A DNA stretch of 64,000 bases, taken from NCBI GenBank assembly GCA_005887925.1, contig VBLP01000125.1, forward strand, positions 9,777 through 73,776, written 5' to 3'. The stretch comes from Deltaproteobacteria bacterium. GTDB lineage: Bacteria > Myxococcota_A > Polyangia > Haliangiales > Haliangiaceae. The notes under the pieces are model-generated. The model saw only the letters and a program-made list of their open reading frames with translations, made no database searches and was not told the origin of the DNA. A program made the position numbers and the translations under genes. This document shows positions 3,116-64,000 of this stretch, piece by piece. The stretch's first letter is position 1. Each line of letters starts with the position of its first letter.

Positions 3116-5164
3116 CTACTGCGCGTCGAACACGTACTCGTGCTGGCCGTCGCGCAGGGTCAAGGTCGGCTTGCCCGCCGCCTCGCCGACGACGAACTCG
3201 AAGCCGGCGATGCCCGGATCGATGGTCTGGAACGTGACCGTGCCGTCCGGGTTCTTGAGCGTCGCGACCTCGCTGCGGAACTCGCCGAAGTCGAACACCG
3301 TCTTGCCGTCGCGGGCCACGACCTTGATCTCGCCGAGCGCGGCGTTGCGGTAGCCCCTGGCGAGCTTGGCGACGGCGGCCGGCTCGGGCGGCACGGTGAG
3401 CAGCTTGCGCACCGCCGTGTGCTGGGTGAAGAAGTTCTTCGCCGCCTGCGCCACGTTCTCGTCGGCCTCGGGCTTGCCGTCGTAGAGCACCTCGAGCAGC
3501 TTGCGCTGGAACTGGCCGCGGATGATCGGGCCGAGGTCGCCGTTGGTGAGCACCACCGCGCCGACGTTGGCCTCGGGGATCCACATCATGTCGCTGTGGA
3601 ACCCGATCAGGTCGCCGCCGTGGTGATAGACGGTGATGTCGTACTTGGTCTGGATGAACAGGCCCATGCCGTACGCCGCGTCGGCGCCGATCGCGACGCC
3701 CGGGGCGCGGCGCGCGAACAGCGCGTCCTTCGAGATGTACGGCTTGCCGCCGGGGAGCTTGCCCTCGGCGAGCTCCATCGCGAGGTACTTGAGCAGGTCG
3801 TCGACGTTGCTCCACGCCGCACCCGCCGGGCGGGCCGAGATCGCCGAGTAGTTCTCGTCCATCGCGTCGCGCGCCGGCTTGCCGTCGACGTTGATGCCGT
3901 GCGGCATCGCGTGGTTGCCGCGCAGCGCCTTTGCATAGTCGAACGTGGTCGCCTTCATGCCGAGCGGATCGAACACCAGCGTCTGCATCGCCTTGTCGTA
4001 GGCGGCGCCGAGCTCGAGCTTGGGATACAGCGCGTGACCTCCGGTGTAGCCCCCGGCCGCCGCCATCAGGTTCGAGTACTGGAACAGCTCGCCGAACTTC
4101 GAGGTCGGCATCATCGTGCCGAGCGTCTTCATCACCGACTCCGGCGTCGAGCCCTTCCACTCCATCAGCCACTCGAGGTCCTGGCGGGGCAGGCCGGTGC
4201 ACGCGCAGATCAGGTGCTTGACCAGCACCTGCTTGGTGATCTCCGCGCTGCCCAGCTTGAAGCTCGGCAGGATCGACGTCACCGGCTGGTCCCACGCGAT
4301 CCGCCTGGCGTCGACCAGCTTGGCGAGCATCAGCGTGGTCAGCGACTTGGTGTTCGACGCGATCATGAACAGCGTCTTGTCGTCGACCGTCTCGCTCTTG
4401 CCGAGCTCGCGCACGCCGATCCCGCCGGCCCACACGAGCTTTCCGTCCTGGATCACGCCGAACGACACGCCCGGCACGCCGGTCGCCTCCTCGGCATCGC
4501 GCACGAACTTCTTGAGCTGCTCGAGCTTGCCGGCGTCGATCTTGGCCGCGGTCTTGCCGCCGAACGACTCGCGCGAGTAGCCCTTGGGGTAGAAGTGGCT
4601 GAATACCTTGGCGAGCTGTCCGGCGCGCTTCTCGGCCGTCGCATCGGCGAAGTCGAAGATGACGACGCACCAGCGGCCATTCGCGAACCGCGTGCTCGCC
4701 CCGACGCCGCGCTTCTCGTTCGGCGAGGTCCGGTAGTTGTAGCTCTTGCCGCGGGTCCATCCGTCGCGGTCGGGTGTGTCGACGGTCGCGAGCAGCGGCC
4801 ACGTCACGTCGGGCTTGTACACCTTCCAGCCGGCGTCGCGCGCGGCGTCGTTCGAATCGGCGGAGACATCGATCACGGCGAGGTGCGAGTCGCCCTCCGG
4901 CGGACTGATCACGACCATCGCGGCGAACGTCTCGACCTTCCAGCCATCGGGCACGATGAACGTGTTGCCATCGAGATCGGCCGATGGCGTGTCGCCCGTC
5001 ATCACCTTGGCGACCGCAGCCCGCGCGGGCGCGGGCGCCGACGCCGGCGCCGGCGCCGGCTGGTCGGCAGCGACCGGCGCGGGCGCTGTCGCCGGCGGGG
5101 CCGCAGCCGGCTTGGGGGCCGAAGAACAGGCGACGAGCAACACCACGCACGCGAGGCCTCGCAT
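3116..5164 (-). CDS. Beta-lactamase-family serine hydrolase lipoprotein
   Basis: Lipobox at MRGLACVVLLVACSS. S-x-x-K motif in LFMIASNTKSLTTLMLAKL. Ordinary amino-acid composition, unlike the Arg-rich shadow ORF 3140..5668 on the other strand. Confidence 0.75.
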   Translation of the reverse strand: MRGLACVVLLVACSSAPKPAAAPPATAPAPVAADQPAPAPASAPAPARAAVAKVMTGDTPSADLDGNTFIVPDGWKVETFAAMVVISPPEGDSHLAVIDVSADSNDAARDAGWKVYKPDVTWPLLATVDTPDRDGWTRGKSYNYRTSPNEKRGVGASTRFANGRWCVVIFDFADATAEKRAGQLAKVFSHFYPKGYSRESFGGKTAAKIDAGKLEQLKKFVRDAEEATGVPGVSFGVIQDGKLVWAGGIGVRELGKSETVDDKTLFMIASNTKSLTTLMLAKLVDARRIAWDQPVTSILPSFKLGSAEITKQVLVKHLICACTGLPRQDLEWLMEWKGSTPESVMKTLGTMMPTSKFGELFQYSNLMAAAGGYTGGHALYPKLELGAAYDKAMQTLVFDPLGMKATTFDYAKALRGNHAMPHGINVDGKPARDAMDENYSAISARPAGAAWSNVDDLLKYLAMELAEGKLPGGKPYISKDALFARRAPGVAIGADAAYGMGLFIQTKYDITVYHHGGDLIGFHSDMMWIPEANVGAVVLTNGDLGPIIRGQFQRKLLEVLYDGKPEADENVAQAAKNFFTQHTAVRKLLTVPPEPAAVAKLARGYRNAALGEIKVVARDGKTVFDFGEFRSEVATLKNPDGTVTFQTIDPGIAGFEFVVGEAAGKPTLTLRDGQHEYVFDAQ

Positions 5165-5253
5165 GCATCCACCCTAGATCAGTTATCGCGCGCGATCGAC
5201 GCGCGACGCGCTGCGACAGCCGCGACAGCGCCTACCGAGGATCCGGACGGACG

Positions 5254-5287
5254 GCAACATGTTGCATCGCCGGAGCAACGTGCTTGC
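5254..5287. promoter_or_regulatory. Two adjacent palindromic sites in the divergent intergenic region (candidate operator)
   Basis: Perfect 12-bp palindrome GCAACATGTTGC (5254-5265), followed by the related imperfect GCAACGTGCTTGC (5275-5287). They lie between the lipoprotein start (5164, minus) and the kinase start (5473, plus). Confidence 0.2.
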
Positions 5288-5472
5288 CGTGGTGGATGTG
5301 CGCGAAAGCACGTGTCGCGAGGGGACCGCGATCAGTGCAAGAACGCCACGTCGTCAGGTGTTCGACGCTCGGACCGCGCCGTTCCGCCGGCGCGGCAGCA
5401 GCGGTGCAGCTGCCACAATATGCGGCGCCCGGCGGAACAGCCGCACCGGCTCGCGAGCATAGCGTGTTCGGA

Positions 5473-7383
5473 ATGCCCGACATCGATCCGCTCGCAGGCC
5501 TTTCGACCGGCAGCAGCACCGTGCACGACTCCACCGCGGGCGAGCAGTCGCACGGTGGCGTGCCGCCGCGGGTGCGCGCAACGGGCGCCATCGATCGCAG
5601 CTCGCCGGCACCCCAGTCATCGATCGACTTCCTCCAGCGCCGGCGGCTGTGGTGGTTGTGCTTCGTGATCCTGGCGCTGTGCGGAGGTTCGGCGCTGGCG
5701 ATCCGCGTGCTCGGTGGCTCGTTCGCGATCTGCTGCGTGTACGTCGCGGGCATGACCGGCGCGGCCGCCGCGTCGCTCTGGATGGGATGGATGGCGCGCC
5801 ACCGCCGCACGTCCGTCGCCGGCGCCGGCGTGGCGTGGTTCATCATCGCCGCCGCCGGTGTCGGCGGGGCCATACTGTACTACGGGGCATTCTCGCCGGC
5901 GGTCATGCTCGCGGTGCTCGCGGTGTTCTTCGTTGCGACGCGCGACGAGCTCGTCATCGCGCTCGCGGTCTATCTGACCGTTGCCGCTGTGCAGGCGGCA
6001 CTGGCGATCGCGATCATCGCCGGGGTCGGTCCGGAGCTCGGCGTATTCGCGCTGCGCGAGACCTCGCCCGGCAAGCTCGTGATCCTCGAGGTCCTGCTCC
6101 AGAGTGTCATCCTGGGGACGCTGATCGTCGGCTGTGCGGTGCGCAGCAGCATGGTCGGGACGATCCGGCAGCTCGAGCAACAGGCGCGCGAGCTCGGGCA
6201 TCACGAGCTGATGCTCGAGGACGCGCGGCGCGCCTTCGAGGCCTCGCTGCGCGCCGCCGGCGGCGGCCACTTCAGCCACCAGGTGTTTGGCGCTTACCGC
6301 CTGGGCCGGCTGCTCGGCGAGGGTGCGATGGGCGAGGTCTACGACGCGGTCGACACGCGCAACGGCGCCGACGCGGCCGTCAAGGTCCTCCGGCGCGAGG
6401 CGATGGGCGACCAGCGGCTCATCCGGCGCTTCTTGACCGAGGCGCGCATCGTGACCTCGCTCCAGAGCGAGCACATCGTGCGCGTCTTCGAGACCGCCGA
6501 TCCTGATGCGGTGTTGCCGTACATCGCCATGGAGCGGCTGCACGGCACCGATCTGCGCAACCACCTCAAGAGCCGGCACGATCGCCGGCTATCGCTCGCC
6601 GAGATCGACGATCTGCTGCGCCAGGTCGCGCGGGGGATCAACGCCGCGCACAGCGCCGGCATCGTCCATCGCGATCTCAAGCCGTCGAACCTGTTTCGCG
6701 ACAGCGCCGGCACCTGGAAGATCCTCGACTTCGGTGTCTCCAAGGTGGCCGGCGAGCGCACCGCGATCGGCGCCGTCGTCGGAACCCCGAGCTTCATGTC
6801 GCCCGAGCAGGTCGAGAGCAAGACCGTCGATGCGCGGACCGATATCTTCGCGCTCGGCGCGATCGTGTATCAGGCGCTCACCGGCAAGCTGGCGTTCCGC
6901 GGCAACACGCTCGCCGCGACCCTGCTGGAGGTCGTCCATGGCATACCGCTGCGCCCGAGCGAGATCGTACCAGGCCTCTGTCCAGAGATCGATCATGCGA
7001 TCATGACCGCGCTCGCCAAGGATCGGCGCGAGCGCTTCGCGACCGCCACCGCGTTCGCCGAGGCGTTCAGCCGCGGCGTGGCCACCCAGCGCGTCGCCGA
7101 CGAGGTGCGCCACGCCGAGCAGCGGCGGCGGCAGACCGCGGCTCGCCGCGCCGTGCTCAGGCACGAGGACATTCGCGGTGCCTCGGACGCCGCCGGGCCG
7201 GCGGTGGAGGCTGGCAACGGTGCAGGCACCGGCGGTGCTGGATCCTCCGACGAGCGCTCGACCGTGCTCGAGATACCGGCCGGCAGGCGCGGCGTGCCGG
7301 CGCTCTCGGTCGCTCACGCATGCGAGGCCGCGCCCCCAGATGCGGCCGGTGATGCGGCCGGTGACACGACCGACTGGTCATAG
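5473..7383 (+). CDS. Ser/Thr protein kinase with N-terminal polytopic membrane domain
   Basis: ORF 4984..7383 trimmed to ATG 5473 (MPDIDPLAG). Several hydrophobic helices come first ([14 protein letters not shown]..., [18 protein letters not shown]..., [12 protein letters not shown]...). Hanks kinase motifs follow: [32 protein letters not shown]. Confidence 0.85.
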
Positions 7384-29032: not shown

Positions 29033-30994
29033 GTGCGACAGATCGACAAGCTGCTCGTCGCCAACCGCGGTGAGATCGCGCTGCGCGTGATGCGGACCTG
29101 CCGCGCGATGGGGATCGCCACGGTCGCGGTGTACTCGGACGCCGATGCCGACGCGCCGTTCGTCCGGTTCGCGGACGAGGCGGTCCGGATCGGGCCGGCG
29201 CCGGCGCGCGAGTCCTACCTCGTGATCCACGCGATCCTCGACGCGGCGCACCGGACCGGGGCTGCCGCGATCCACCCCGGCTACGGGTTCCTGTCGGAGA
29301 ACGCCCGGTTCGCCGAGGCGGTCGCCGAGGCCGGCCTGGTGTTCATCGGGCCGCCGGCGGCGGTGATCGGCCAGCTCGGCAGCAAGCAGGCGGCCAAGCG
29401 GCTCGCCGCGCGCGCTGGCGTGCCGACCGTGCCGGGCTACCTCGGCGACGATCAGTCGACCGCGGCGCTGGCCGCCGCCGCCGAGGCGATCGGCTACCCG
29501 CTGCTGGTCAAGGCGTCGGCCGGTGGCGGCGGCAAGGGCATGCGGGTCGTCCGGGGCGCGGGCGAGCTCGCCGAGGCGATCGACCGCGCGCGCGGCGAGG
29601 CGGCGTCGGCGTTCGGCGACGACACCCTGCTGCTCGAGAACTACATCGAGCGGCCGCGCCACATCGAGATCCAGATCCTCGGCGACACCTACGGGCGCGT
29701 CGTCCACCTGTGGGAGCGCGAGTGCTCGATCCAGCGCCGCCACCAGAAGGTGATCGAGGAGGCGCCGTCGCCCGCCCTCGACCCCGAGCGCCGCGCGGCG
29801 ATGGGCGCCGCCGCGGTCGAGCTCGGCCGCGCCGCCGGCTACGTCGGGGCGGGCACCGTCGAGTTCATCGTCGATCCCGAGCGCCGGTTCTACTTCCTCG
29901 AGGTCAACACCCGGCTGCAGGTCGAGCACCCGGTCACCGAGCTGACCACCGGCCTCGACCTCGTCCGCGAGCAGATCCGGATCGCGCGCGGCGAGCCGCT
30001 GGGCTACGACGCCGCGCCGCCGCAGCGCGGCTGGGCGATCGAGGTCCGGCTCTGTGCCGAGGACCCCGAGCGCGCGTACCTGCCGACCACCGGCGCGCTG
30101 CTCGCCGTCGACGTGCCCGGCGACGGGGCCGTACGCGCCGACCTCGGCGTCGCCGCCGGCAGCGAGGTCGGCATCCACTACGATTCGATGCTGGGCAAGA
30201 TCATCGCCCACGCGCCGACCCGGCGCGACGCCGCGCAGCTGCTGCGCCGCACCCTCGAGCAGACCTGGGTGCCGGGCCTCATCACCAACCGCGAGCACCT
30301 CGCCCGCATCCTCGCGCACCCCGCGTTCCTCGCCGGCGAGCTCGACACGCACTTCCTCGAGCGCTGCGCGGGCGAGCTCGCCGCCCGGCCGCCGGGCCTG
30401 GACCGGGTCCGGGTCGCTGCGATCGCCGCCACGCTGCACGGCATCGCGGGCCGCCGCGAGCCGGCCGCGCTCGCCCCGCCGGGCTGGCGCAACGTCCGGT
30501 TCGCCGACCAGCAGGTCGTCTACCAGCTCGGCGACGCCGACGTGATCGTCGGCTATCGCCCGGTCGGGGCCGAGGTCGAGCTCGCGATCGGTGGCGTGCC
30601 GACCCGGATCGCGCGGTTCGGCCTCGACGGCGACCGGCTGTGGTTCATCGAGCACGGCGGCCACCGTCGCGCGCTGCGCGTCGCGCGCGCCGGAGCGCGG
30701 ATCTGGGTGCTGTCGGACGGCGAGCTGTTCTCGCTCGTCGAGCAGCCGCAGTTCCTCGAGCCCGGCGCCGACACCGTCGCCGGGGGACTGGTCGCGCCGA
30801 TGCCGGGCAAGGTGGTCCGGATCCTGGTGATACCCGGCCAGGAGGTCGCAGCCCACGCGGCGCTCGTCGTGCTCGAGGCGATGAAGATGGAGCACACCGT
30901 GCGCGCGACCGCCGCCGGCACGGTGCGTGCGATCCACGTCGCGGTCGGCGATCAGGTCGATGGCGACCACGTGCTCGCCGTGGTCACGCCGTAG
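29033..30994 (+). CDS. Acyl-CoA carboxylase alpha subunit (biotin carboxylase + biotinyl carrier domain)
   Basis: GTG start. KLLVANRGEIALRVMRTCRAMGIATVAVYSD marks the biotin carboxylase N-terminus. An ATP-grasp core follows. The C-terminal biotinylation motif is VLEAMKMEHTV. Confidence 0.9.
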   Translation: MRQIDKLLVANRGEIALRVMRTCRAMGIATVAVYSDADADAPFVRFADEAVRIGPAPARESYLVIHAILDAAHRTGAAAIHPGYGFLSENARFAEAVAEAGLVFIGPPAAVIGQLGSKQAAKRLAARAGVPTVPGYLGDDQSTAALAAAAEAIGYPLLVKASAGGGGKGMRVVRGAGELAEAIDRARGEAASAFGDDTLLLENYIERPRHIEIQILGDTYGRVVHLWERECSIQRRHQKVIEEAPSPALDPERRAAMGAAAVELGRAAGYVGAGTVEFIVDPERRFYFLEVNTRLQVEHPVTELTTGLDLVREQIRIARGEPLGYDAAPPQRGWAIEVRLCAEDPERAYLPTTGALLAVDVPGDGAVRADLGVAAGSEVGIHYDSMLGKIIAHAPTRRDAAQLLRRTLEQTWVPGLITNREHLARILAHPAFLAGELDTHFLERCAGELAARPPGLDRVRVAAIAATLHGIAGRREPAALAPPGWRNVRFADQQVVYQLGDADVIVGYRPVGAEVELAIGGVPTRIARFGLDGDRLWFIEHGGHRRALRVARAGARIWVLSDGELFSLVEQPQFLEPGADTVAGGLVAPMPGKVVRILVIPGQEVAAHAALVVLEAMKMEHTVRATAAGTVRAIHVAVGDQVDGDHVLAVVTP

Positions 30995-32481: not shown

Positions 32482-32506
32482 CGCTGGAGCATACGGGGGG
32501 ACCTGG

Positions 32507-32591
32507 GCGCTGGCAACCTTGCCAGCTGGCAAACTTGCCAGCAGCAATCTTGCCAGCAGCAACCTTGCCAGCTGGCAACCTTGCCAGCGCC
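32507..32591. repeat. Tandem array of 15-16 bp units CTTGCCAGC(T/A)GCAA(N), with embedded 14-bp palindromes TTGCCAGCTGGCAA
   Basis: Units lie at 32518-32533, 32534-32548, 32549-32563 and 32564-32579, with a partial unit at 32580-32591 and a half-site GCTGGCAAC at 32509-32517. Units 1 and 4 carry the perfect palindrome. The array fills the gap between the stop of the upstream gene (32592) and the ATPase start (32481). Confidence 0.9.
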
Positions 32592-54221: not shown

Positions 54222-57200
54222 GTGGTGTCGAACATGATCGAGCGACTACCAGGCGACGAGCCGGAGATAGGCGACGCGCTGATCATCGCGGGCTACGAGG
54301 TTGGCCAGCCCACTGCCGGCACGCGGCTGCCTCCGATCGCCCAGCTCGGGCAAGTTCTCCTCGGAGCGAGGCGTCCGTGGCGGATCCGGCGCCTCGCAGC
54401 GCCGGGCTCGGACCGCGACGTCCCCACGCGGCAAAACGTCCGGCGCGAGATCGATGCGCTGTTCGCGCGTCGCGCCGCCGCTCGGCTGCTCGTGCTCACC
54501 GGCGAGGTGATTCGCACCCTCGAGGGCCTGGGTCTGGTCTGTGCCCCCGAGCTGGGCGGGTTTCGCGAGGACGCCACGGTCCCCCTGGAGTGGATCGGCG
54601 AACGGCTGCGCCCGCTCGGTGGCGCCACGGTGGTGATCCTCGCCGCGACCGCAGAGCAGCGCGATCCCGTGCGCTGGCTGCAGGCACTCGCCGCCCGGCC
54701 GGCGGACCATCTCGTCGTGGCGCATGCCGGCCCGCCGCTCGAGGCGCTCGAGGCGCTGCTCGACGGCCTGGCGCCGGGCGAGCGCGATCCCGAGACCGGC
54801 GAGATCACACCACGCTCGCTGGGAGCTCATCTCGCGCATCGCCTGCGCTCGGCCGCGATCCAGCGCTCGCGATCCGCGGTACCGCTGCTCGCGCTGGCGG
54901 CCAGCCCGGCGCACGCGGGCACCGGGGAACGGCCGGCGCGAGCCGCCGAGCCCGAGGACCTCGTCGGAGCGATCCTGCCCGGCCGGTTCCGGATCGACGC
55001 CGAGATCGCGCGCGGCCGGTTCGCGACGGTGTACCGCGCGCATCAGGAGCTCGTCGGCCGCGACGTGGCGATCAAGGTCCTGGAGTCCGATCCGTCCGCG
55101 GAGGCCGTGCGCCGGTTCCTCGACGAGATCCGCACGGTCGCGCGCCTCGACCACCGCAACATCGTGCGCGTGCTGCACGCGGATCTGACCCGCGGCGGCC
55201 GGATGTTCCTCGCCATGGAGCTCGTGGCCGGCAAGACCCTCCAGCAGGTGCTCGATGACACGGGGCCGCTCCCGGCGGCCCGCGCCGTCGCGATCGCGCG
55301 GCAGATGCTCGCCGGGCTGGCAGCCGCACACGCCGGCGGTGTCATCCACGCCGATATCAAGCCGGCCAACACCGTGGTGCTCGACGGCGACGGCGATGGC
55401 GACGAGCGCGTGGTGCTGCTCGACTTCGGCCTGTCACGCCTTCAGACCGGCGCCGCTGTCGCCTCCGCCGGAGGAACCCCCGCGTACATGGCACCCGAGC
55501 AGCTCCGTGACGGCATCGTCGATGTCCGCTCCGACCTCTACGCGACCGGGCTGGTGCTGGTCACCATGCTCGCGGGGCAGCGCCCCGCGTCGGAGGCCGC
55601 GCTGGCGCGCTCGATCGAATCGCTCGACGACCATCGACTGAGCGCGGCACTGGGTCGCGCGCTCGCGGAGAACCCCAGCGACCGCTTCGCCTCGGCCGCC
55701 GAGATGTCCGCCGCGCTGGCGTTCGACGGCGAGTCGCTGGATCCGCCACCGCGACCGCCGTTCCGCTCAGCGGCGCCGTTCTCGGAAGCCGATCGCGACG
55801 AGTTCTTCGGCCGCGACCGCGAGATCGAGGTCCTGCTCGAACACGTCCTGTTCAGCCGCGCCGTCATCTACGTCGCGCCCTCGGGAACCGGCAAGACCTC
55901 CTTGCTCCGCGCGGGGCTGTCTCCGCGCCTGACCCGGCTCGGGGTTCGCCCGGTCTACGTCGCGTGCCGTCCCGGCGTCCCCGACGGAGTCGCTGCGGCG
56001 ATCTCCCCAGACCACACGCGCATCCTCGACGCCATCGCGCACCATCATGCATCGTCGCAGCGGCGCCTCGTCATCATCATCGATCAGATCGAGGCCGCTC
56101 TCCTCGCGCCGGCCGACGCCGACACGGTCGTCGAGAACCTTTCGCTGCCGCGCTGGCCCGCCGATGCGCAGGTCTCCGTCGTCCTCAGCGTCCGCGAGGA
56201 ATACCTCGCGCGCCTGCTCGACCGGACGCAGCGGATCGACCCGGGTATCCCGATCGTGCGGCTCGGGCCGCTCGGCCCCGACGCCGCGCGTGACGCGCTG
56301 ACCCGCACGCTCGCCACCCGCCGGCTGACGATCGAGCCGGCCCTGCTCACCGCCCTGATCGACGACCTCGCGCGCGCGGCCTCCCGGCTCGCGATCGATC
56401 TCGGCTGGGGCGCGGGGCCCGCGATCTACGCACCGCACCTGCAGCTCGCCGGTGCGGTGCTCTACGAGGCGCTGCCCGCCGGCGCCCTCGAGATCCCGCA
56501 CGCGCTGTACGCGCAGCTCGGTGGGCTCGACAAGATCGTCGCCGAGCACCTCCACCATGTGCTCGAGGGTGAGCTGCCGCCCGGTGACACCGCGATCGCG
56601 CGCGATCTCCTGCTCGCGCTGGTCGCCAGCAGCCACCTGCGCACCGCGCGCCGCGAGTCCGAGCTGGTCGCGATCGCGCGCCGGCCGGCCCGCGCGCAGC
56701 CCGCCGATCCCGGCTCCGAGCGGCCCGAAACCGCGATCGTCGCCGTCATCCACTTCCTCCGCAGCCGTGGCTTGCTCGTGTCCACCGCGGGACCGGCCGG
56801 CGAGACCCTCTGGGACCTCGCGCACGACAGCCTGATCGAGCGCGTCCAGCAGTGGATCACGAGGACCGACCTCGCCCGGCTGCGTGCCGTCGAGCTGGTT
56901 CGTTACCACCTGCGCCGCACGCGCGCCGGCCAGCTCAGCCGCCTCGGTGCCGGCGAGCTGCGCGAGACCCGCAGCCACCTGGCCGCCGCCGACCTGTCCG
57001 ACCTCGACGACGAATGGGCGCGTCCGGGCGACCCCGCGCCGGCGACCGCCCTGGTATCCGCCTCGCGCCGCGCCCTGCGCACCCGGCGCGCCACCCTGGG
57101 AGCCTCCGCCGCCATCGCCATCGCCGTCGCCGCCGGCCTCGCCCTGCGGTGGCAGGAGGAGCGCGCGCTGCGCCGGCGCGAGACCACGCTGCGCGATCGC

Positions 57201-58337
57201 GACATCGGCCACTTCACCCTCGCGCTGCGCGCCTTCGACTGGAATCCCGACGCCCTCGCGCCGCGCGACGTCGCCCCCGCGAGCACCTTCAGCTTCGACT
57301 GGGAGCTCCACAAGCCCGATCCCGACGATCCAGACAGCCCCGGCGCGGTGTACTCCGATGACTATCTCACGCGTCGTCCCGTCACCGCCGCCCTCGGCAC
57401 GCGCACCGACGACGTGGCCGCACGCGGCGGACCCGCCGTCCTGGTCATTCACCGCCGCGACCCCGCACAGCCCGCCGCCTTCTGCCGCGACGTGCTCCTG
57501 CCGATCCGCCGGCTCCCCGGCTACGCCACCGAGCCGACCACCCTGCAATTCACCGTGCGCGTCCCGACCTGCGCCGCCACGCGCGCCGGCACCGTCGCCA
57601 TTCCCGGCGGCCCGTTCATCGCCGGCGGCCAGGGCGACCCTCCGGCACCCTACGCGGCCAGCGAGCTGCCCCCGGAAGCCACCGTCGATCTACCGGCCTA
57701 CGCGATCGACCGCACCGAGGTGCCGATCGCCGCGCTCGATCTGTTTCTCACCATGCGACCGCTGCACGGCATCGTTGCCCCGCCGCACCCGAGCAACACG
57801 GCGCGGTACCCCAACCAGGCACGGTTCCCCGCCGCCGCCATCACCTGGCGCGAGGCGCGCGCGTTCTGCCGCTACCTCGGCAAGGACCTGCCCACGCTCG
57901 ATCAGTGGGACAAGGCTCTCCGCGGCGGCACCACCCTCGACGGCCAGCCCAACCCATGCCCCCGCCGCACCTTCGCCTGGTGCGGCGCCATGAACACCCA
58001 GTGGGCCAACGTCCGCATCGGCGACCAAGCCCAGCCGCTGCCGGTCGGCAGCAACCCGCACGACACCAGCCCCTACGGCGTCCTCGACATGGTCGGCAAC
58101 GTCCAGGAGTGGACGCGCTCTCCCGACCTCCCCTACGAGACCTTCCCGGCCACCCTGTCCGCCGCCGAGCGCTACCGCCGGCAGACCGGCAACCAGCCGA
58201 TAGTCATCTCCCGCGGCTGCGACTGGGGGGACATCGAGTGCGCCACCCTCCCGCTGACCATCATGCCGATCGCCAACCCACGCCTGCGCGACGTCCGCTA
58301 CTTCACCCTCGGCTTCCGCTGCGCGGTCAGCGATTGA
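54222..58337 (+). CDS. Multidomain signalling protein: caspase-like (catalytic residues absent) + Ser/Thr kinase + STAND P-loop NTPase + TM + FGE-sulfatase (SUMF1) domain
   Basis: 1371 aa. Kinase motifs are VAIKVL, HADIKPAN, DFGLS and GTPAYMAPEQ. The STAND entry motif is FSEADRDEFFGRDREIEVLL...VAPSGTGKTSLLRAGL. The TM segment is LGASAAIAIAVAAGLAL. The FGE domain shows YAIDRTEV, ITWREARAFCRYLGKDLPTLDQWDKALRG, GVLDMVGNVQEWT and LGFRCAVSD. Confidence 0.85.
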   Translation: MVSNMIERLPGDEPEIGDALIIAGYEVGQPTAGTRLPPIAQLGQVLLGARRPWRIRRLAAPGSDRDVPTRQNVRREIDALFARRAAARLLVLTGEVIRTLEGLGLVCAPELGGFREDATVPLEWIGERLRPLGGATVVILAATAEQRDPVRWLQALAARPADHLVVAHAGPPLEALEALLDGLAPGERDPETGEITPRSLGAHLAHRLRSAAIQRSRSAVPLLALAASPAHAGTGERPARAAEPEDLVGAILPGRFRIDAEIARGRFATVYRAHQELVGRDVAIKVLESDPSAEAVRRFLDEIRTVARLDHRNIVRVLHADLTRGGRMFLAMELVAGKTLQQVLDDTGPLPAARAVAIARQMLAGLAAAHAGGVIHADIKPANTVVLDGDGDGDERVVLLDFGLSRLQTGAAVASAGGTPAYMAPEQLRDGIVDVRSDLYATGLVLVTMLAGQRPASEAALARSIESLDDHRLSAALGRALAENPSDRFASAAEMSAALAFDGESLDPPPRPPFRSAAPFSEADRDEFFGRDREIEVLLEHVLFSRAVIYVAPSGTGKTSLLRAGLSPRLTRLGVRPVYVACRPGVPDGVAAAISPDHTRILDAIAHHHASSQRRLVIIIDQIEAALLAPADADTVVENLSLPRWPADAQVSVVLSVREEYLARLLDRTQRIDPGIPIVRLGPLGPDAARDALTRTLATRRLTIEPALLTALIDDLARAASRLAIDLGWGAGPAIYAPHLQLAGAVLYEALPAGALEIPHALYAQLGGLDKIVAEHLHHVLEGELPPGDTAIARDLLLALVASSHLRTARRESELVAIARRPARAQPADPGSERPETAIVAVIHFLRSRGLLVSTAGPAGETLWDLAHDSLIERVQQWITRTDLARLRAVELVRYHLRRTRAGQLSRLGAGELRETRSHLAAADLSDLDDEWARPGDPAPATALVSASRRALRTRRATLGASAAIAIAVAAGLALRWQEERALRRRETTLRDRDIGHFTLALRAFDWNPDALAPRDVAPASTFSFDWELHKPDPDDPDSPGAVYSDDYLTRRPVTAALGTRTDDVAARGGPAVLVIHRRDPAQPAAFCRDVLLPIRRLPGYATEPTTLQFTVRVPTCAATRAGTVAIPGGPFIAGGQGDPPAPYAASELPPEATVDLPAYAIDRTEVPIAALDLFLTMRPLHGIVAPPHPSNTARYPNQARFPAAAITWREARAFCRYLGKDLPTLDQWDKALRGGTTLDGQPNPCPRRTFAWCGAMNTQWANVRIGDQAQPLPVGSNPHDTSPYGVLDMVGNVQEWTRSPDLPYETFPATLSAAERYRRQTGNQPIVISRGCDWGDIECATLPLTIMPIANPRLRDVRYFTLGFRCAVSD

Positions 58338-58363
58338 CTGAACGACGAATTGAGAATCATATA

Positions 58364-59086
58364 TTATGGCAGGACGAAGAGACATTCGAGTTCTTTGATG
58401 GGAGCATGGGAACTATCGGACGACGAATAGTGTCGAGTCTGGTTCTCGGCCCGCTTCTGGCTGATCCGCACGAGCTTGCCACCAAAAAAGAGCTCGCCGC
58501 GAGCTTCGACATCGACATTCGACAATAGCTCAATCGACTGGGATGGGACGGCAAGCAGCCCTGGTAGAGAGAACCAAGTATCAAGTCTAAGCACCTGCTC
58601 TAACGTTGTCACTTCTGTGCCGCGAACATTTGATAGAAGATTCGACAACTCTTTGCGCAAAGGCTCGCTGACCGAGCGCCGAATGGCGCCGGCTGACTTC
58701 ATCACTGAATCATTCAGCTCGTAACGGTGTGTTTTGTTTTGCAATTTTGCGAATAGATTGTGTCGTCTGTTAGAAAGAAGACCGTTGCTATTGAAGTCAT
58801 ATAACCCTACAGGACGCTGAGTTCCGTATGCTTGTATTCCGAATTCTCTCATGCGCTCTAATGCTTCCTGGGCGGCAACGCCGACGCATGTGTAGCATCC
58901 AACGAGATACAAGGGATTCTTGCTTAGACGTTCCAGAAGCGAGCGCGGCAACCGGCGGATGTTCTCGGCTGTGAGCCGGCTGATTTGGCGATCGCATCTT
59001 CTATGTCGGCCGGGCCTCCGGCTTCGGCACAACCACTTATTTGAGTTCTGACAGCCCTGAGCCAGAAATCTGATTCTGCGCCGCAA
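58364..59086 (-). CDS. Hypothetical protein in AT-rich cassette (may be the C-terminal half of one frameshifted gene)
   Basis: A 240-codon ORF in DNA where stops are frequent. The composition is ordinary from about ISRLTAENIRRLPRSLLERLSKNPLYLVGCYTCVGVAAQEALERM onwards. It overlaps the upstream ORF by 163 nt. An alternative independent start is ATG 58852. Confidence 0.55.
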   Translation of the reverse strand: MRRRIRFLAQGCQNSNKWLCRSRRPGRHRRCDRQISRLTAENIRRLPRSLLERLSKNPLYLVGCYTCVGVAAQEALERMREFGIQAYGTQRPVGLYDFNSNGLLSNRRHNLFAKLQNKTHRYELNDSVMKSAGAIRRSVSEPLRKELSNLLSNVRGTEVTTLEQVLRLDTWFSLPGLLAVPSQSIELLSNVDVEARGELFFGGKLVRISQKRAENQTRHYSSSDSSHAPIKELECLFVLP

Positions 59087-59796
59087 ATTGCCAGATGGTC
59101 TTGACGCTCGGCCAGAATAGAACCAGCATGGAAGCGATGCTCTGACGGTTCTGCCCGGGCTGCGCCAAAGGGAACCTTGGGGCCCGCAAGGAAATAGAGT
59201 GAGCGTCTGCCGATTTCTTTGAACGAGACAAAGATAGGGCCTTCTTGATCTTTGCTGAGTTTCGTGAGCGCTTGATCAAATAGCGCTGCGTCTGTCGCTT
59301 TGATCCAGGCATCCCCCAAGACTTCATTGGTCCACGAAAAAAACATCACACGCCAGAGCAAAGGGTCGTTTTCGTCGACTTCAATCACTCGTGCGTGAAA
59401 GCCCATGTAACCCTCAGTTATGCCTGCACTGCCCAGACGCATGAGGACCTGTGTCCGATAGGGTTGTTTTTGATAATACGGTGGAAGTGGTAATGAGTCT
59501 GAAATTTTAGGTACCTTGTGGATATCTTCATAGATCGGAGGTGCAAAATCGACCTCCTTGTCATCTGTTGCTCGGTCCAGTGTGTGATTCAAATCTACAT
59601 CGATTAATTCTCCTTTGATATCTTCGACAGATAATCTGTTATCTAGCCATTTGGATACATTGTCACTGGCCGATCGATCTGGAATCCATATCTTACATTT
59701 GCTCGTGGAGTTGACTGTCATCACGCATGCGTGAACGATCTGGAACGTGTATGTGGGATTGAGCGCCCCACCGGCGCTCGACGTTGACTCCGTCAT
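58924..59796 (-). CDS. Hypothetical protein in AT-rich cassette, translationally coupled to the upstream regulator gene
   Basis: A 290-codon ORF. ATG 59796 is preceded by AGGAGA with a 5-nt spacer and lies 13 nt after the regulator stop (TAA, 59810-59812). I recognise no known motif. Confidence 0.6.
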   Translation of the reverse strand: MTESTSSAGGALNPTYTFQIVHACVMTVNSTSKCKIWIPDRSASDNVSKWLDNRLSVEDIKGELIDVDLNHTLDRATDDKEVDFAPPIYEDIHKVPKISDSLPLPPYYQKQPYRTQVLMRLGSAGITEGYMGFHARVIEVDENDPLLWRVMFFSWTNEVLGDAWIKATDAALFDQALTKLSKDQEGPIFVSFKEIGRRSLYFLAGPKVPFGAARAEPSEHRFHAGSILAERQDHLAICGAESDFWLRAVRTQISGCAEAGGPADIEDAIAKSAGSQPRTSAGCRARFWNV

Positions 59797-59809
59797 GACT
59801 GTCTCCTGG

Positions 59810-61321
59810 TTAGACGCTGGACTTGGGTCGCTTGAGCTCGAAGGTCGCGATGAGGTTGTAGAGCTGCGAGCGCGCGAGCCCGAGGCGCTGGATTGCGTCG
59901 GGGACGTCCCAGTCGCAGTCGGTCAGCACGTCGAGCAGGTAGCGGCGCTGGAATCGCCGCGTGGCCTCGCGGTAGTCGAGGATCTCGCCGGCGCGCTCGG
60001 GTGGTCGGGTCGGGAACAGGTGGTGCGGATGCAGGCTGGTCGCGCCCTCGGCGGTCGCGCGGATCGCGCCGGTCTCGACGACGTTGGCCAGCTCGCGCAC
60101 CTGGCCGGGCCATGCCTCGTTCTGCACGACCGCGATCGTCGGACGCGATACGGTGAGCGGAGGCAAGCCGTGACGCGCGCAGGCCTCGCGTGCGAAGTGC
60201 TCGATGAGGGCAGGCAGGTCGTCGCGGCGATCCGCCAGGTCCGGCATCTCGATCGCGACGATGTTGAGCCGGTAGAACAGGTCGCGCCGGAACGCGCTCT
60301 TCTCGACGCGCTCGCGGAGGTCGACGTTGGTCGCCGCGATCACCCGCACGTCGGCGGAGACGATCTGCGACGAGCCGAGGGGGTAGTACTGGCGGTCCTG
60401 GAGCAGCTGGAGGAGCTTGGTCTGCGCCTCGTAGGGCAGGTCGCCGATCTCGTCGAGGAAGAGGGTTCCGCCGCGCGCGGCCGCGACCTTGCCGGGCGTC
60501 CGCTGGGTCGCGGTCGAGTGGGCGCCGCGCTCGGTGCCGAACAGCTCGCTCTCGACCAGGGCGACCGGGATCGCGCCGCAGTTGATCGCGATGAACGAGC
60601 CGCCGGCGCGACGGCTGTTATCGTGGATCGCCCGCGCGAGCGCCGACTTGCCGGTGCCCGATGGCCCGGTGATCAGCACGCCGATATCGAGGGGCGCCAT
60701 GTTCGCTGCCTCATTCAAGACCCGAGCCAGCGCACGGCTGCGCCCGATCAGCAACGGACACAGGAAGCGGCGGCGGATGTCTGCCGTGTGATCGACCGAC
60801 TCCCGCTCCGGCCACGGCGTGTGGAGGCGCTCGGCGATGAGCCCGAGCTGGGTGGCAAACAGCTCGGCCCAGTCGCGGTGCTCCGGCGAGAAGCTGCCGC
60901 CGTCGGGGCGGCCCTGCAAGTACACCACGCCGAGCGGCGGCCGGCCGATCGGCGCGCACAGCACGGCATCGATCTCGTGCTGCTGCACGCTGCTGCGGGC
61001 GGCGAACCGCGGATCGTCGCGCGCCGACGGGGTCTCGACGGTCTCCCCGGCGGCCAGCGTCGCCTGGATGATGCCGCGCGACACGGTGTTGCGGATCGTC
61101 TCGACGTGCTCGGGAGTGCAGCCGTGCGCCCGCGAGTACGCCGCCCCGGTGCGCTGATCGTGATGCAGCTCGAGATAGGCGACCTGCGCGGATGTGGACT
61201 CCACGATCAATGCGAGCGCGTGATCGAGCAGCGGCGCGAGCTCTCCCTCACGACCGACCTCGAGCAGCCTGCGATAGAAGGTGCGCTCCGACTCTGCCTG
61301 CCGTACGCCTGTACCGACCAT
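59810..61321 (-). CDS. GAF + AAA+ (sigma54-EBP type) + Fis-HTH transcriptional regulator with non-canonical GAFTGA loop
   Basis: The 3' 504 codons of ORF 59810..61966, from ATG 61321 (MVGTGVRQAE). An N-terminal GAF domain comes first. Walker A is ITGPSGTGKSALA and Walker B is GTLFLDEIGDL. ESELFGTERGAHSTAT stands where ESELFGHEKGAFTGA is expected. The C-terminal HTH is AIQRLGLARSQLYNLI. Confidence 0.85.
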   Translation of the reverse strand: MVGTGVRQAESERTFYRRLLEVGREGELAPLLDHALALIVESTSAQVAYLELHHDQRTGAAYSRAHGCTPEHVETIRNTVSRGIIQATLAAGETVETPSARDDPRFAARSSVQQHEIDAVLCAPIGRPPLGVVYLQGRPDGGSFSPEHRDWAELFATQLGLIAERLHTPWPERESVDHTADIRRRFLCPLLIGRSRALARVLNEAANMAPLDIGVLITGPSGTGKSALARAIHDNSRRAGGSFIAINCGAIPVALVESELFGTERGAHSTATQRTPGKVAAARGGTLFLDEIGDLPYEAQTKLLQLLQDRQYYPLGSSQIVSADVRVIAATNVDLRERVEKSAFRRDLFYRLNIVAIEMPDLADRRDDLPALIEHFAREACARHGLPPLTVSRPTIAVVQNEAWPGQVRELANVVETGAIRATAEGATSLHPHHLFPTRPPERAGEILDYREATRRFQRRYLLDVLTDCDWDVPDAIQRLGLARSQLYNLIATFELKRPKSSV

Positions 61322-61515
61322 CTTCTCGCTTTGCCACACGGCGTGGATCGGCCGCAAGGTCGTTGCGGGATCCGATGGACGCCTTGCGGGCCGTGGCATG
61401 GCGCCCCGAGCGCGGCCCCTCGCCGACGGCGTCCGGAAGATCGGACGGATGGCTCGCCAGTCCAGGCGACCGGACCGGCGGACCGCGCAGCTGCGCGACG
61501 CGCGGGTATCTCGTC

Positions 61516-61531
61516 TGGCGCGCGTCTTGCT
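61516..61531 (+). promoter_or_regulatory. Candidate sigma54 (-24/-12) promoter upstream of the S8-like gene
   Basis: TGGCGCGCGTCTTGCT has GG and TTGC at consensus spacing. It lies in the 225-nt divergent region between the EBP-type gene and the S8-like gene. An inverted repeat CCGCAAGGTCGTTGCGG (61352-61368) further upstream could be a UAS. Confidence 0.35.
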
Positions 61532-61546
61532 GCGGCTCCCGACGGG

Positions 61547-62788
61547 ATGCGCGAGTATGCGATGCTGCGGAGGAGGCGAGGGGCTGGTGCTCGCGCACCC
61601 TTCGACATGGCGCCCGGACCGGCGGCCGGCGCCGAGATCGAGCCAGGCGAGGTCTGGGTGGAGCGGGCGTATCTCACGGACAGCGAGGTGCTCGATCTCG
61701 CCGCCGACCCGAGCGTCGCGACCGTGACGCCGACCATGCCGACGTCGCTGGGCGCGCTGCCGGCGCTTTCGACCTCGGATGCGCCCTCGGCCTGGGGCAT
61801 CGGTGCGATCCGGGCCGACAGCTCCCCGTTCGACGGCAGCAGCATCGCCGTCGCCGTCCTCGGCACCGGGATCGACGCCGAGCACGCTGCGTTCGCCGGC
61901 GTGCAGCTCGTGCAGCGCGACTTCACCGCGACCGGCGGCGGCGATGGGCATGGCCACGGCACGCACGTGGCGGGGATCCTGTTCGGCCGGGACCTCGATG
62001 GCGTGCGCATCGGCGTGGCGCGCGGCGTCACGCGCGCGCTGATCGGCAAGACATTCTCAGAGAGCGGCGTGGGCCGGAGCGACTGGATGCAGGAGGCGAT
62101 CCTGTGGGCGTACCAGGAAGGCGCGCGGGTGATCGCGCTGGCGATGACACTCGACCTCGAGCGCGCCGTGGCGGAGTTCGTGGCCGAGGGACTGCCGCCG
62201 CATGCGGCGACCCTGCGCGCTCTCGAATGCTACCGGGCCAATGCCCGCGCGCTCGACGCGCTGATCACGCTGGTGCGGGCCAGGTCGGCATCCGAGCCCG
62301 GCGCCATCGTGGTGGTCGCTGCGGGCGATGACTCGAGGCGCGACGCGCGCCCTCCGGCCGTGGCCTTCCGGATCGCCGCCGGGCCGCCGGCCGCCGCCGC
62401 GGATGCGCTCGTCGTGGGGGCCGTGGAGCAGCGCACGGCCGGCCTCATCACCGCACCGTTCTCCAACCTGTACCCGCGCCTGTGCGCGCCCGGCGTCGAC
62501 GTGGCGTCCGCCCAGCGCGGAGGTGGCATCGCAGCGCGGAACGGCACGAGCATGGCCGCGGCGCACGTGGCCGGCGTCGCTGCGCTGTGGTGGCAACACC
62601 TCGGCGAGCGCAGCCCGGCCGAGCTCGTCGCCGCGCATGTCCTGCGATCGTGCCGCACCGGCGTGTTCGCGAGTGCGCCTCATCCGGCCGAGGCCGGGGC
62701 GGGCCTCGTGACCGCACCGGGCGAAGAGCTACTCGCGCCGCGGGCCCGGACTCCCGCGAGCGCAATACCGGACTGCAGACATCGATAG
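61547..62788 (+). CDS. Subtilisin-like (S8) protein with no signal peptide and a non-canonical Asp/oxyanion position
   Basis: The 3' part of ORF 59747..62788. Candidate starts are ATG 61547, 61562 or 61607. The His motif is DGHGHGTHVAGI and the Ser motif is NGTSMAAAHVAGVAAL. The Asp motif reads VAVLGTGID (GGC where GAC is expected). AAGDD stands where AAGN is usual. Confidence 0.75.
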   Translation: MREYAMLRRRRGAGARAPFDMAPGPAAGAEIEPGEVWVERAYLTDSEVLDLAADPSVATVTPTMPTSLGALPALSTSDAPSAWGIGAIRADSSPFDGSSIAVAVLGTGIDAEHAAFAGVQLVQRDFTATGGGDGHGHGTHVAGILFGRDLDGVRIGVARGVTRALIGKTFSESGVGRSDWMQEAILWAYQEGARVIALAMTLDLERAVAEFVAEGLPPHAATLRALECYRANARALDALITLVRARSASEPGAIVVVAAGDDSRRDARPPAVAFRIAAGPPAAAADALVVGAVEQRTAGLITAPFSNLYPRLCAPGVDVASAQRGGGIAARNGTSMAAAHVAGVAALWWQHLGERSPAELVAAHVLRSCRTGVFASAPHPAEAGAGLVTAPGEELLAPRARTPASAIPDCRHR

Positions 62789-62837
62789 ATGAGCAGCTGT
62801 ACTGCTTGAACCAGGAACTCCATAGGGCGAGGTGAAC

Positions 62838-64000
62838 ATGAAGCGGGTCGTCGTCGTGTTGTGGTTGATCAGTGGAATCACGCGGGCGTGGGCAGATGCA
62901 GCGCCGCCCCCGGCAAAGCCGAGCGGACCGCCGGCCGAGGCGCCGGTAGCGTCGGCACCAGTCTGTGACAATGCCGAGCTCAAGCAAGGTCATTCATGGT
63001 GTGATCCAGCTACATTCCCGGGCCTCGGCGACGCAGTGCTGGTGTGCATCGAAGCTCGCCGTGGCTGTCTCGTGGGTGTCACGCACGTACACTCCCGGTA
63101 CCATCTGGACACCGGAACAAAGCCAACCACGAGCATACAACCGGATCTGATTCCTCCAAACCTACCGATCGTGGTCGCCGTGCACGCCCGGGATGACTCA
63201 TCCGCGAGAGATGTGTCTGTGGCACTCGCAGGAACCGCTGGCCAGTCACTGCCAGAAGTGTTTACAGGGTTGGGCAAGGGAATTGGCACCTCAATGGTCG
63301 CAGAAGCCATCGACACTACTCCACCACCGCCGCCCGAAGAACGATATTATCTATCACGTTTCGCCCCTCGGACTCCTGGCGCTGCACAGCTCACTGTGAC
63401 TATCACAGAGGCGGTAGACAGTCGGGCGGTCGCCGGCGGAGGCACGCCAGAAGCGTCGTCGCGCGGCTCGTTGTGTTTCGCGGTCTTCTGCAACGTCGTC
63501 TACGCAGCAGCTGCCGCCGAGAAATCCGACGGTGGTCCGAAGCTGAAGAAGTCGACCTTTGCGTACGAGCTCTATGTTCCCAAGATCTACGGAGGCGCGC
63601 TGCGGCTTGGCATCGGCGCGGTCCGCGTCCACGGTCTCGAGCACAGCTACGGGGCGCGCAAGGTGGCCGGCAGCGACTTCTCGCAGGTCGTCGATAATGG
63701 CGCCGATCCGGTCAACCTGGAGGTCGTGGTCGGCTATGCGCCCTTCCTCGGCGCAAAGCTGACGTCCGACATGGGCGGTCGCACGTACATGCGCGACGAC
63801 AATCCGTGGACGCGGTTTGCTCCCTACTTCGGCGTCGGGATCATCTCGTCATCGAACAGCAAGTTCGAGTGGCTGCGTTCGCTGTACGCGGGCGTCGAGT
63901 ACGAGCTCACACCGGGTAGCTCTCTCGCGCTCGCACTGGTCATCCGGCGCGTGGATGCGCTCGCGAACGGCCTGTCGGTTGGCATGCCGGTGGCCGATAC
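62838..64000 (+). CDS. Secreted protein of unknown function, 3' end beyond the window
   Basis: Not in the ORF track because no stop is reached. ATG 62838 follows GGCGAGG. My own translation gives MKRVVVVLWLISGITRAWADAAPPPAKPSG... (signal peptide), a Cys-containing N-domain, then a strand-like C-terminal part (...FAPYFGVGIISSSNSKFEWLRSLYAGVEYELTPGSSLALALVI...). The frame is open to nt 64000. Confidence 0.6.
   Translation, partial: MKRVVVVLWLISGITRAWADAAPPPAKPSGPPAEAPVASAPVCDNAELKQGHSWCDPATFPGLGDAVLVCIEARRGCLVGVTHVHSRYHLDTGTKPTTSIQPDLIPPNLPIVVAVHARDDSSARDVSVALAGTAGQSLPEVFTGLGKGIGTSMVAEAIDTTPPPPPEERYYLSRFAPRTPGAAQLTVTITEAVDSRAVAGGGTPEASSRGSLCFAVFCNVVYAAAAAEKSDGGPKLKKSTFAYELYVPKIYGGALRLGIGAVRVHGLEHSYGARKVAGSDFSQVVDNGADPVNLEVVVGYAPFLGAKLTSDMGGRTYMRDDNPWTRFAPYFGVGIISSSNSKFEWLRSLYAGVEYELTPGSSLALALVIRRVDALANGLSVGMPVAD

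Follow-up and report, generated by a model that had tools for sequence, protein, structure and literature searches.

Can an enhancer-binding protein (EBP) still serve sigma-54 when its sigma-54-contact loop reads GAHSTA instead of GAFTGA? The question is raised by a locus at one end of the window, the 64,000-nt stretch of contig VBLP01000125.1 (positions 9,777 to 73,776) that was analysed here. In this locus an EBP gene is divergent from a gene for an S8 protease, with a sigma-54-type -24/-12 promoter and two palindromes between them, and it is followed by a DUF4347-like gene and a convergent gene for a STAND-type Ser/Thr kinase. The locus is an EBP-target unit of familiar design, and it is probable, from its motifs and their conservation, that it is a sigma-54-dependent unit run by a non-canonical EBP and working as proposed below. 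Judged from its distribution among homologues, GAHSTA is what selection maintains as the normal loop in a large Kofleriaceae-type EBP clade. The features that carry the argument are the following.

59810-61321, minus strand: EBP, GAF-AAA+(sigma-54 interaction)-HTH, 503 aa (Pfam, NCBIfam)
60526-60509, minus strand: codons for the L1 loop GAHSTA of the EBP (from the translation; context ELFGTERGAHSTA)
61322-61546: divergent intergenic region between the EBP and S8 genes, 225 nt
61516-61531, plus strand: sigma-54-type -24/-12 promoter TGGCGCGCGTCTTGCT, best match in the window and conserved
61431-61446: distal palindrome GTCCGGAAGATCGGAC, predicted upstream activating sequence (UAS), centre at about -103 from the predicted transcription start
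61460-61475: proximal palindrome GTCCAGGCGACCGGAC, second predicted UAS, centre at about -74
61353-61369: inverted repeat CCGCAAGGTCGTTGCGG proposed in an earlier note on this DNA, 6-nt arms

All sequence features listed in the earlier note were found where it had placed them. The EBP sequence is identical to P0121 (503 aa). Its Pfam domains are GAF/GAF_2, Sigma54_activat (208 bits, with the PF00158 match spanning profile positions 1-167 of 168), and AAA_lid_14. The HTH_8 match is weak (18.9 bits, under the cut-off of 22), and PF02954 is recorded for many close homologues. In NCBIfam, the protein groups with NifA-, NtrC-, and NorR-type activators and stays under all equivalog cut-offs. No phospho-acceptor or FHA domain is evident in it. 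The ATPase motifs GPSGTGKS, LFLDEIG, and FRRDLFYRL are conserved in 119 EBP homologues, as are the R-finger region, both Walker motifs, and GAHSTA.

The loop has the length of GAFTGA and differs from it at three of six residues, so the canonical EBP motif is absent. The earlier note had described GAHSTA as eroded and had left it to an alignment whether the motif occurs in a clade. It does, and it is a near-invariant signature of a large Kofleriaceae-type clade: GAHSTA was found in 107 of the 120 closest EBP clusters at 90% identity, which range from 100% down to 54% identity. One-residue variants (GSHSTA, GAHTTA, GAHSAA twice, GAHSMA, and GAHSQA) were found in six clusters and a canonical-type G[AS][FY]TGA loop in four. 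At least 120 metagenome contigs match the DNA pattern encoding ELFGxE[RK]GAHSTA. The source names of the clade proteins point to metagenome-assembled genomes (MAGs) of Kofleriaceae (Myxococcota, Haliangiales), and the EBP search of genome contigs gave one useful locus, L011, from a Kofleriaceae MAG. Surveys treat GAFTGA as invariant and use the motif as a filter (PMC12316311, PMC3162934). The string GAHSTA returned no relevant paper among 8.3 million full texts, and the defective-GAFTGA tables of Francke et al. 2011 do not contain it. A large EBP clade with a fixed GAHSTA loop, for which no description was found in the literature, is a first new element.

A second GAHSTA family was also seen, with the architecture FHA-AAA+-HTH and the Walker A sequence GETGVGKE (L096, L100, L115, L120, L122, L141, L158, L174, and L175). 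Its genes are divergent from a Pkinase-TPR gene and lie upstream of a class I methyltransferase-like gene. No GTCC-N8-GGAC palindromes of the kind described below were found at these nine loci.

The -24/-12 match that the earlier note had reported at 61516-61531 is present and is the best one in the window. TGGCGCGCGTCTTGCT agrees with 11 of the 12 defined positions of TGGCACG-N4-TTGCW and is the top site over both strands of the 64 kb. It gives a predicted S8 transcription start at about 61542 (counted from the C of the -12 GC at 61530) and a leader of about 5 nt. GTCC-N8-GGAC occurs exactly twice in the window, both times within 61322-61546. Such matches could be due to chance in G+C-rich DNA, with the genes being mere neighbours: 2.5 GTCC-N8-GGAC sites are expected per window, and the loose pattern TGGC-N7-TTGCW, seen twice in the window where 0.38 matches are expected, reaches two or more matches in 6 of 100 shuffles. 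This explanation is very improbable, because the two palindromes and the top -24/-12 match are packed into about 100 nt of a single 225-nt region and all three keep their position across diverged loci. Two related loci illustrate this. The -24/-12 element is kept in L005 (TGGCGCGCGCCTTGCT, S8 69% identical) and L008 (CGGCGCGCGGCTTGCT, S8 60% identical), and these two loci also share the palindrome GTCCGG-N4-YCGGAC with the window. The activator/target layout proposed earlier is supported: the -24/-12 element persists in orthologous loci while the flanking DNA diverges, and its spacing to the conserved palindromes is fixed.

The same arrangement was recovered over a wider set of loci. GTCC-N8-GGAC (consensus GTCCACTnnAGTGGAC) was found upstream of the EBP gene in 65 of 102 loci, with a density of 0.157 per kb over all locus DNA, and it is often paired there, with copies about 29-33 nt apart. 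In 82 loci the DNA upstream of the EBP gene was scored for -24/-12 motifs matching at least 10 of 12 positions: 16 loci have one on the divergent strand, and a single locus has one on the same strand (chance, 0.025 per 450 nt). Sorted by the upstream gene, the motif was found in 13 of 52 loci where that gene is divergent versus 2 of 38 where it is co-directional. Counted from the first base of the palindrome to the T of TGGC, the spacing clusters at 55-57 nt (10 cases) and 84-87 nt (6 cases), with the distal palindrome at an offset of 85 nt in the window, L005, and L205. An ATG follows the -24/-12 motif after 12-16 nt in 10 loci. Spacing was judged from motif positions, a MAFFT alignment of five intergenic regions being poorly anchored. 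The layout stands before the S8 gene (window, L005, L132, L200, and L204), before the gene for a small four-helix membrane protein that starts MSLAIRP (L008, L205, and L193), before the gene for a 150-aa protein (L157, L178, L192, and L201), before the gene for an HExxH protein (L144 and L181), and before several singleton genes. Within each first-gene group the four-base motif spacer varies and the GG and GC blocks are constant. A UAS and a -24/-12 promoter, as expected for an EBP target, are thus found together, with their geometry kept across loci. Sequence-specific DNA binding by the EBP, with its sub-threshold HTH match, is argued from the conservation of the palindromes. On these motif data, the predicted binding site and the promoter geometry, both the clade's own, are a second new element.

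The earlier note had offered the CCGCAA/TTGCGG inverted repeat at 61353-61369 as an upstream element. The repeat is present, but its second arm is not conserved in L005 or L008, where the half CCGCAAG (TTGCGG on the EBP strand) alone recurs. Because only one arm is conserved, the repeat was rejected as an enhancer, and the two GTCC-N8-GGAC palindromes are likely the better candidate. The CCGCAAG half-site may be the -35 element of the EBP's own promoter. Rfam gave no credible match in 58000-64000.

Elsewhere in the window, two further sigma-54-like matches were recorded, CGGCAAGCACGTTGCT at 5274-5289 and TGGCCGCCTGCTTGCT at 29381-29396, both on the minus strand. At 32505-32590 (minus-strand reading), directly past a stop codon, five palindromic units of 15-16 nt are arranged head to tail (CTGGCAAGNTTGCCAG). 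Two of these units score as -24/-12 look-alikes, and the array is more like an operator or a repetitive extragenic palindromic (REP)-type repeat.

The mechanism proposed for the locus is as follows. The EBP would most likely bind the two GTCC-N8-GGAC palindromes, at about -103 and -74; once a signal has relieved its GAF domain, it would spend ATP on opening the -24/-12 promoter (61516-61531). Three proteins would be made from the near-leaderless transcript: the pro-subtilase, which has no signal peptide, then the exported beta protein with its two domains, and a lipoprotein. This design resembles that of the Group III GAF-sensor EBPs (NorR, NifA, and Myxococcus PexR), which share the GAF-AAA+-HTH architecture (the HTH being a sub-threshold match in the window EBP), multiple dyad sites about 70-110 nt before a -24/-12 promoter, and a regulator gene divergent from its target. 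The near-leaderless layout has been noted for pexR too (PMC12754779). The clade of the window EBP differs from Group III EBPs in its L1 loop, its target genes, and its site, GTCC-N8-GGAC, and in its link to the DUF4347-like gene and the STAND kinase. PexR was considered as a member of the same family and was ruled out, since it has a canonical GAFTGA where the window EBP has GAHSTA, and its targets are different.

Several points weigh against sigma-54 dependence. In model EBPs, PspF among them, sigma-54 is contacted by the Phe and Thr of the loop, and substitutions mostly destroy activation (PMC3467059, PMC3162934), and in the light of model-EBP mutagenesis a His in the Phe position looks non-functional (PMC3467059). 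The source genome was covered by one contig, in which rpoN was not seen. Many of the compared loci are orthologues, so the counts given above are not independent, and gene calls in the related loci came from a crude in-house caller of open reading frames (ORFs). The sole activity-keeping change at the Phe, in work by Zhang et al. in 2009, was reportedly Phe to Tyr. Finally, most GAHSTA loci are of a different type, type A (for instance L093, L105, L123, and L194), in which recA and a small gene precede the EBP gene in the same direction. Type A loci have the palindromes and no adjacent -24/-12 motif; downstream of the palindromes, a conserved sigma-70-like element, TCGATTTCGAC...GATACT, lies about 8 nt before the EBP start. 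This short distance to the ATG suggests that the type A EBP mRNA is leaderless. Because the type A palindromes accompany a sigma-70-like element without a -24/-12 motif, the GAHSTA protein probably also autoregulates at a sigma-70 promoter, similar to PexR at ahpC, and part of the activity of the clade may be such sigma-70-linked autoregulation. The sigma-54 targets in type A genomes, if any, are elsewhere.

On these grounds the GAHSTA protein could be off sigma-54 altogether, acting as a repressor or activator at sigma-70 promoters including its own, with the -24/-12 element of the S8 gene served by a canonical EBP or left as a relic. EBP-like proteins without the motif do act at sigma-70 promoters (PMC10274813, PMC3162934). 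TyrR, DhaR, HupR, VpsR, and the NtrC proteins of Rhodobacter and Caulobacter are, like the window EBP, PF00158 family members without a canonical GAFTGA (PMC3162934, PMC10274813). Most proteins of this kind that work with sigma-70, however, have loop deletions (PMC10274813), and some are independent of ATP hydrolysis, whereas GAHSTA keeps the loop length under strong constraint and the clade keeps its ATPase motifs, with Walker B and the arginine-finger region conserved, and has -24/-12 promoters beside its predicted sites. These promoters stand at a fixed distance from the clade palindromes before several unrelated genes and show a clear strand bias, and sister proteins with GAFTGA and GSYTGA loops have the same layout. 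A complete departure from sigma-54 is thus considered unlikely, and dependence on sigma-54 is kept as the preferred reading.

The sister proteins, P0149 (GAFTGA) and P0158 (GSYTGA), are 59% identical to the window EBP. Their loci have the order EBP, two genes matching the halves of the DUF4347-like gene, and a convergent Pkinase-nSTAND1-FGE gene, and upstream of the EBP they carry the MSLAIRP membrane gene and secreted proteins. The sister -24/-12 motifs, TGGTTCGCGGGTTGCA in L214 and TGGTGCATCGGTTGCA in L215, each lie 16 nt before the ATG of the membrane gene. L215 has one exact palindrome, GTCCGGGATTCCGGAC, at the 55-nt offset, and L214 has degenerate copies only. In a rough neighbour-joining tree of the AAA+ core, made with the loop masked and without support values, the four G[AS][FY]TGA proteins nest in the GAHSTA clade, which is separate from eight canonical EBPs. 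Orthologous systems with one loop or the other share their promoter architecture, which is the main reason for concluding that sigma-54 is most likely still used by the GAHSTA proteins.

In L214 (2871-4698), the cargo operon of the sister locus ends in two paralogous lipoproteins, each with about 11-12 tandem CGN-x-x-C-E-x-GE repeats ahead of a small beta domain.

Two genes of the predicted sigma-54 operon lie in the window.

61547-62788, plus strand: S8 pro-subtilase without signal peptide, 413 aa (Peptidase_S8, 2.8e-28, Pfam)
62838-64000, plus strand: exported protein with signal peptide, 423 aa in full, running past the window end (translation; full length from L001)

The database call for the S8 protein, P0001 (393 aa), starts at 61607 and is too short. 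The in-frame stretch upstream of that codon, MREYAMLRRRRGAGARAPFD, bears x-x-Y-x-[IL]-L-R...PF, the N-terminal motif that opens the proteins of this family from Kofleriaceae-like contigs to Sorangium and Nocardiopsis. The start is placed at 61547 because this motif, upstream of 61607, is conserved in the family; the start given in the earlier note is borne out by the same family-wide motif, MREYxxLR...PF. The catalytic triad consists of D110 (GTGID), H140 (HGTHVAG), and S335 (GTSMAA) and is conserved in 116-119 of 120 homologues. At the oxyanion position, 261, the protein has Asp (AAGDD) where 115 of the 120 homologues have Asn and five have Asp, so the usual Asn is absent; of the signature motifs that had been called eroded, it is this one that departs from its family, whereas GAHSTA is a conserved clade signature. 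Asp also occupies the oxyanion position in the eukaryotic convertase PC2. The AlphaFold model of the S8 protein (mean confidence, pLDDT, 91) shows a long helical insertion at about residues 200-250. Its best fold matches are unprocessed pro-subtilisins (subtilisin E and Tk-subtilisin, about 410 columns), and because of these matches the first 75 or so residues look like a propeptide in the model. The best PDB sequence match is the intracellular serine protease 7y6m. The protein is similar to the intracellular subtilisins and pro-subtilisins of family S8A in its Asp-His-Ser triad, lack of a signal peptide, and N-terminal extension or propeptide, and it is unlike S8A subtilisins in its oxyanion Asp, the helical insertion at about 200-250, and its own motif Y-x-[IL]-L-R...PF.

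The S8 gene adjoins the EBP gene only in the closest loci, that is, the window, contigs of the same strain such as L002, and then L005, L008, L132, L200, and L204. This adjacency is limited to EBPs of about 68% identity or more, and elsewhere other genes replace S8. S8 homologues in Sorangium and Nocardiopsis have no EBP neighbour, and in Nocardiopsis the gene stands alone. In two Sorangium genomes (L009, 3486-9995; L211, 1493-7999), an S8 homologue of 44-46% identity follows an FHA-domain gene and a small gene. A Pkinase-FGE-sulfatase gene lies divergent beside these Sorangium homologues, so that S8 is again paired with a kinase-FGE gene, here without an EBP. In a compost contig (L212, RCUP01000094.1, 2795-5781), the gene for an S8 protein of 48% identity has a ThsB-type TIR gene on either side. 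A caspase-like Peptidase_C14 gene adjoins it and a NERD/AAA gene is near, a setting that looks like a conflict or defence island.

The likeness of the AAA+/S8 pair to IetAS had been raised in the earlier note. IetAS is a co-operonic pair of protease toxin and ATPase antitoxin (PMC13069673), and the two loci have in common a P-loop ATPase gene beside an S8 protease gene. The locus would then be a toxin/antitoxin or anti-phage pair under protein-protein control. Some observations are in keeping with this: PADLOC gives marginal IetS matches at E of about 1e-3 and a "subtilase" match at 2.3e-18, the homologue in L212 lies among TIR and caspase genes, and the STAND kinase encoded nearby belongs to a type that conflict systems often contain. 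The IetS matches, however, are at E = 0.0011 and 0.0022 (14-15 bits) and cover one short stretch each of profiles of 749-795 positions, which does not make the protein an IetS. No IetA model matched the EBP, whose best PADLOC matches are RtcR/PspF-type and which also scores as NifA/NtrC-type. The window ATPase is a predicted DNA-binding transcription activator with a weak HTH match and conserved DNA sites, the two genes are divergent and linked by a predicted promoter and are not one operon, and the pairing with S8 is confined to the closest EBP relatives (about 68% identity or more), S8 occurring without an EBP neighbour in Sorangium and Nocardiopsis. Membership in IetAS was rejected on this basis, and an IetAS-like pair working by protein-protein control is hardly credible here.

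The signal-peptide protein begins at ATG 62838, 49 nt after the S8 gene, as the earlier note had stated, and no terminator is predicted in this 49-nt gap. Its model (pLDDT 79) has a signal helix and a beta-sandwich, and the C-terminal 190 aa or so form a domain of long beta-strands. The C-terminal domain defines a family with at least 296 representatives at 50% clustering, the window protein and P0243-P0392 being among the proteins concerned. In every case it forms the C-terminal part of a signal-peptide protein of 350-600 aa, and its last residues read ...FNFTPxFFQFAxSALPK. Foldseek against the PDB gave nothing below E = 0.1 for the exported protein. In related contigs a lipoprotein gene (lipobox LVAAC) follows 8 nt past the exported protein, at a position beyond the window. 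No Pfam, NCBIfam, or PADLOC match was found for the exported protein or the lipoprotein. The exported protein occurs only in the window's lineage and in L005, and only there are regulator, S8, and secreted protein found together. The cargo may be a proteolytic or envelope response to a GAF-sensed signal.

What is conserved around the EBP lies on its other side.

58364-59796, minus strand: DUF4347-like gene, 13 nt past the EBP stop (composition; blastn against L001-L003)
54222-58337, plus strand, convergent with the EBP operon: Pkinase-nSTAND1-FGE-sulfatase protein, 1371 aa (Pfam)

By tblastn and ORF clustering, the gene directly downstream of the EBP on the same strand belongs nearly always to one fast-evolving family, present as a single gene of 512-596 aa or as two genes. 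Its relation to DUF4347 rests on PF14252 scores of 27.3 bits for the L008 orthologue (cut-off 24.6), 17.5 for that of L005, and 15.1 for a type A protein; the 528-aa L002 protein, the counterpart of the window gene, gave no PF14252 match. The family has invariant-looking His (LDLIGH) and Cys (LLGC) motifs. Between the window and L005, the EBP is 88% identical, the kinase 78%, and the DUF4347-like protein 35%. The gene has 45-53% G+C in a contig of 71% G+C. In the window it is without 85 nt and 69 nt that are present in L001-L003, three independent contigs of the same strain that are otherwise 99.9-100% identical and in which the gene encodes 528 aa. The junctions of the two deletions map near 58976 and 59519. 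Loss of the 85 nt changes the reading frame and takes away the conserved His motif. The window copy may be a genuine pseudogene variant, or it may reflect misassembly of a low-G+C stretch. A homology search with the window fragment found only its own protein and one 91%-identical protein. In L005 (gene 4597-6234) and L008 (3061-4671), the 3' end of the DUF4347-like gene overlaps the convergent kinase gene by 14-21 nt.

Full-length kinase homologues (about 1340 aa, 42-47% identity) occupy the same position in many GAHSTA loci and also in the GAFTGA and GSYTGA sister loci. From these comparisons, EBP, DUF4347-like gene, and Pkinase-nSTAND1-FGE gene make up the conserved core, and the genes under the divergent predicted sigma-54 promoter differ by lineage. 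The linkage of the clade EBP to a DUF4347-like gene (nearly always) and a STAND kinase gene (in many loci) is, as read from gene order, a third new element. Since the DUF4347-like gene lies 13 nt from the EBP gene on the same strand, the two are probably co-transcribed. The same gene order suggests that the kinase or the DUF4347-like protein could control the EBP. Genetic coupling of EBPs to Ser/Thr kinases is shared with the FHA-domain EBPs of Myxococcus, reportedly described by Jelsbak et al. in 2005, and with STAND systems, the window kinase having an nSTAND1 domain; the window EBP differs from those Myxococcus proteins in having no evident FHA domain.

A broader reading is held tentatively, as a possibility on the less likely side. 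GAHSTA would be a natural functional redesign of the sigma-54-contact loop, fixed in a large myxobacterial clade with GAF and FHA types. The GAF type would form a sensory module with two partners, a hypervariable DUF4347-like protein and a STAND Ser/Thr kinase that bears an FGE-type sensor domain, and the module would switch on interchangeable leaderless sigma-54 cargo operons for proteases and for membrane, secreted, or lipoproteins. If so, the module may amount to a programmable envelope or conflict response, and specialised sigma-54 engagement or a dedicated sigma-54 paralogue might be involved.

The locus yields a candidate promoter, candidate binding sites, and a corrected protease start codon. 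The largest EBP repertoires are those of Myxococcota, and Myxococcus cannot do without sigma-54. Sigma-54 surveys filtered on GAFTGA (PMC3162934, PMC12316311) would drop the whole GAHSTA clade. Should -24/-12 promoters indeed be activated by GAHSTA proteins, the loop would be much more tolerant of change than the mutagenesis of PspF and NtrC implied, and the clade would be a natural system for finding which loop features sigma-54 region I needs. The link of the EBP to a STAND kinase and a fast-evolving DUF4347-like protein, with cargo that varies by lineage, points to an uncharacterised signalling module of soil myxobacteria.

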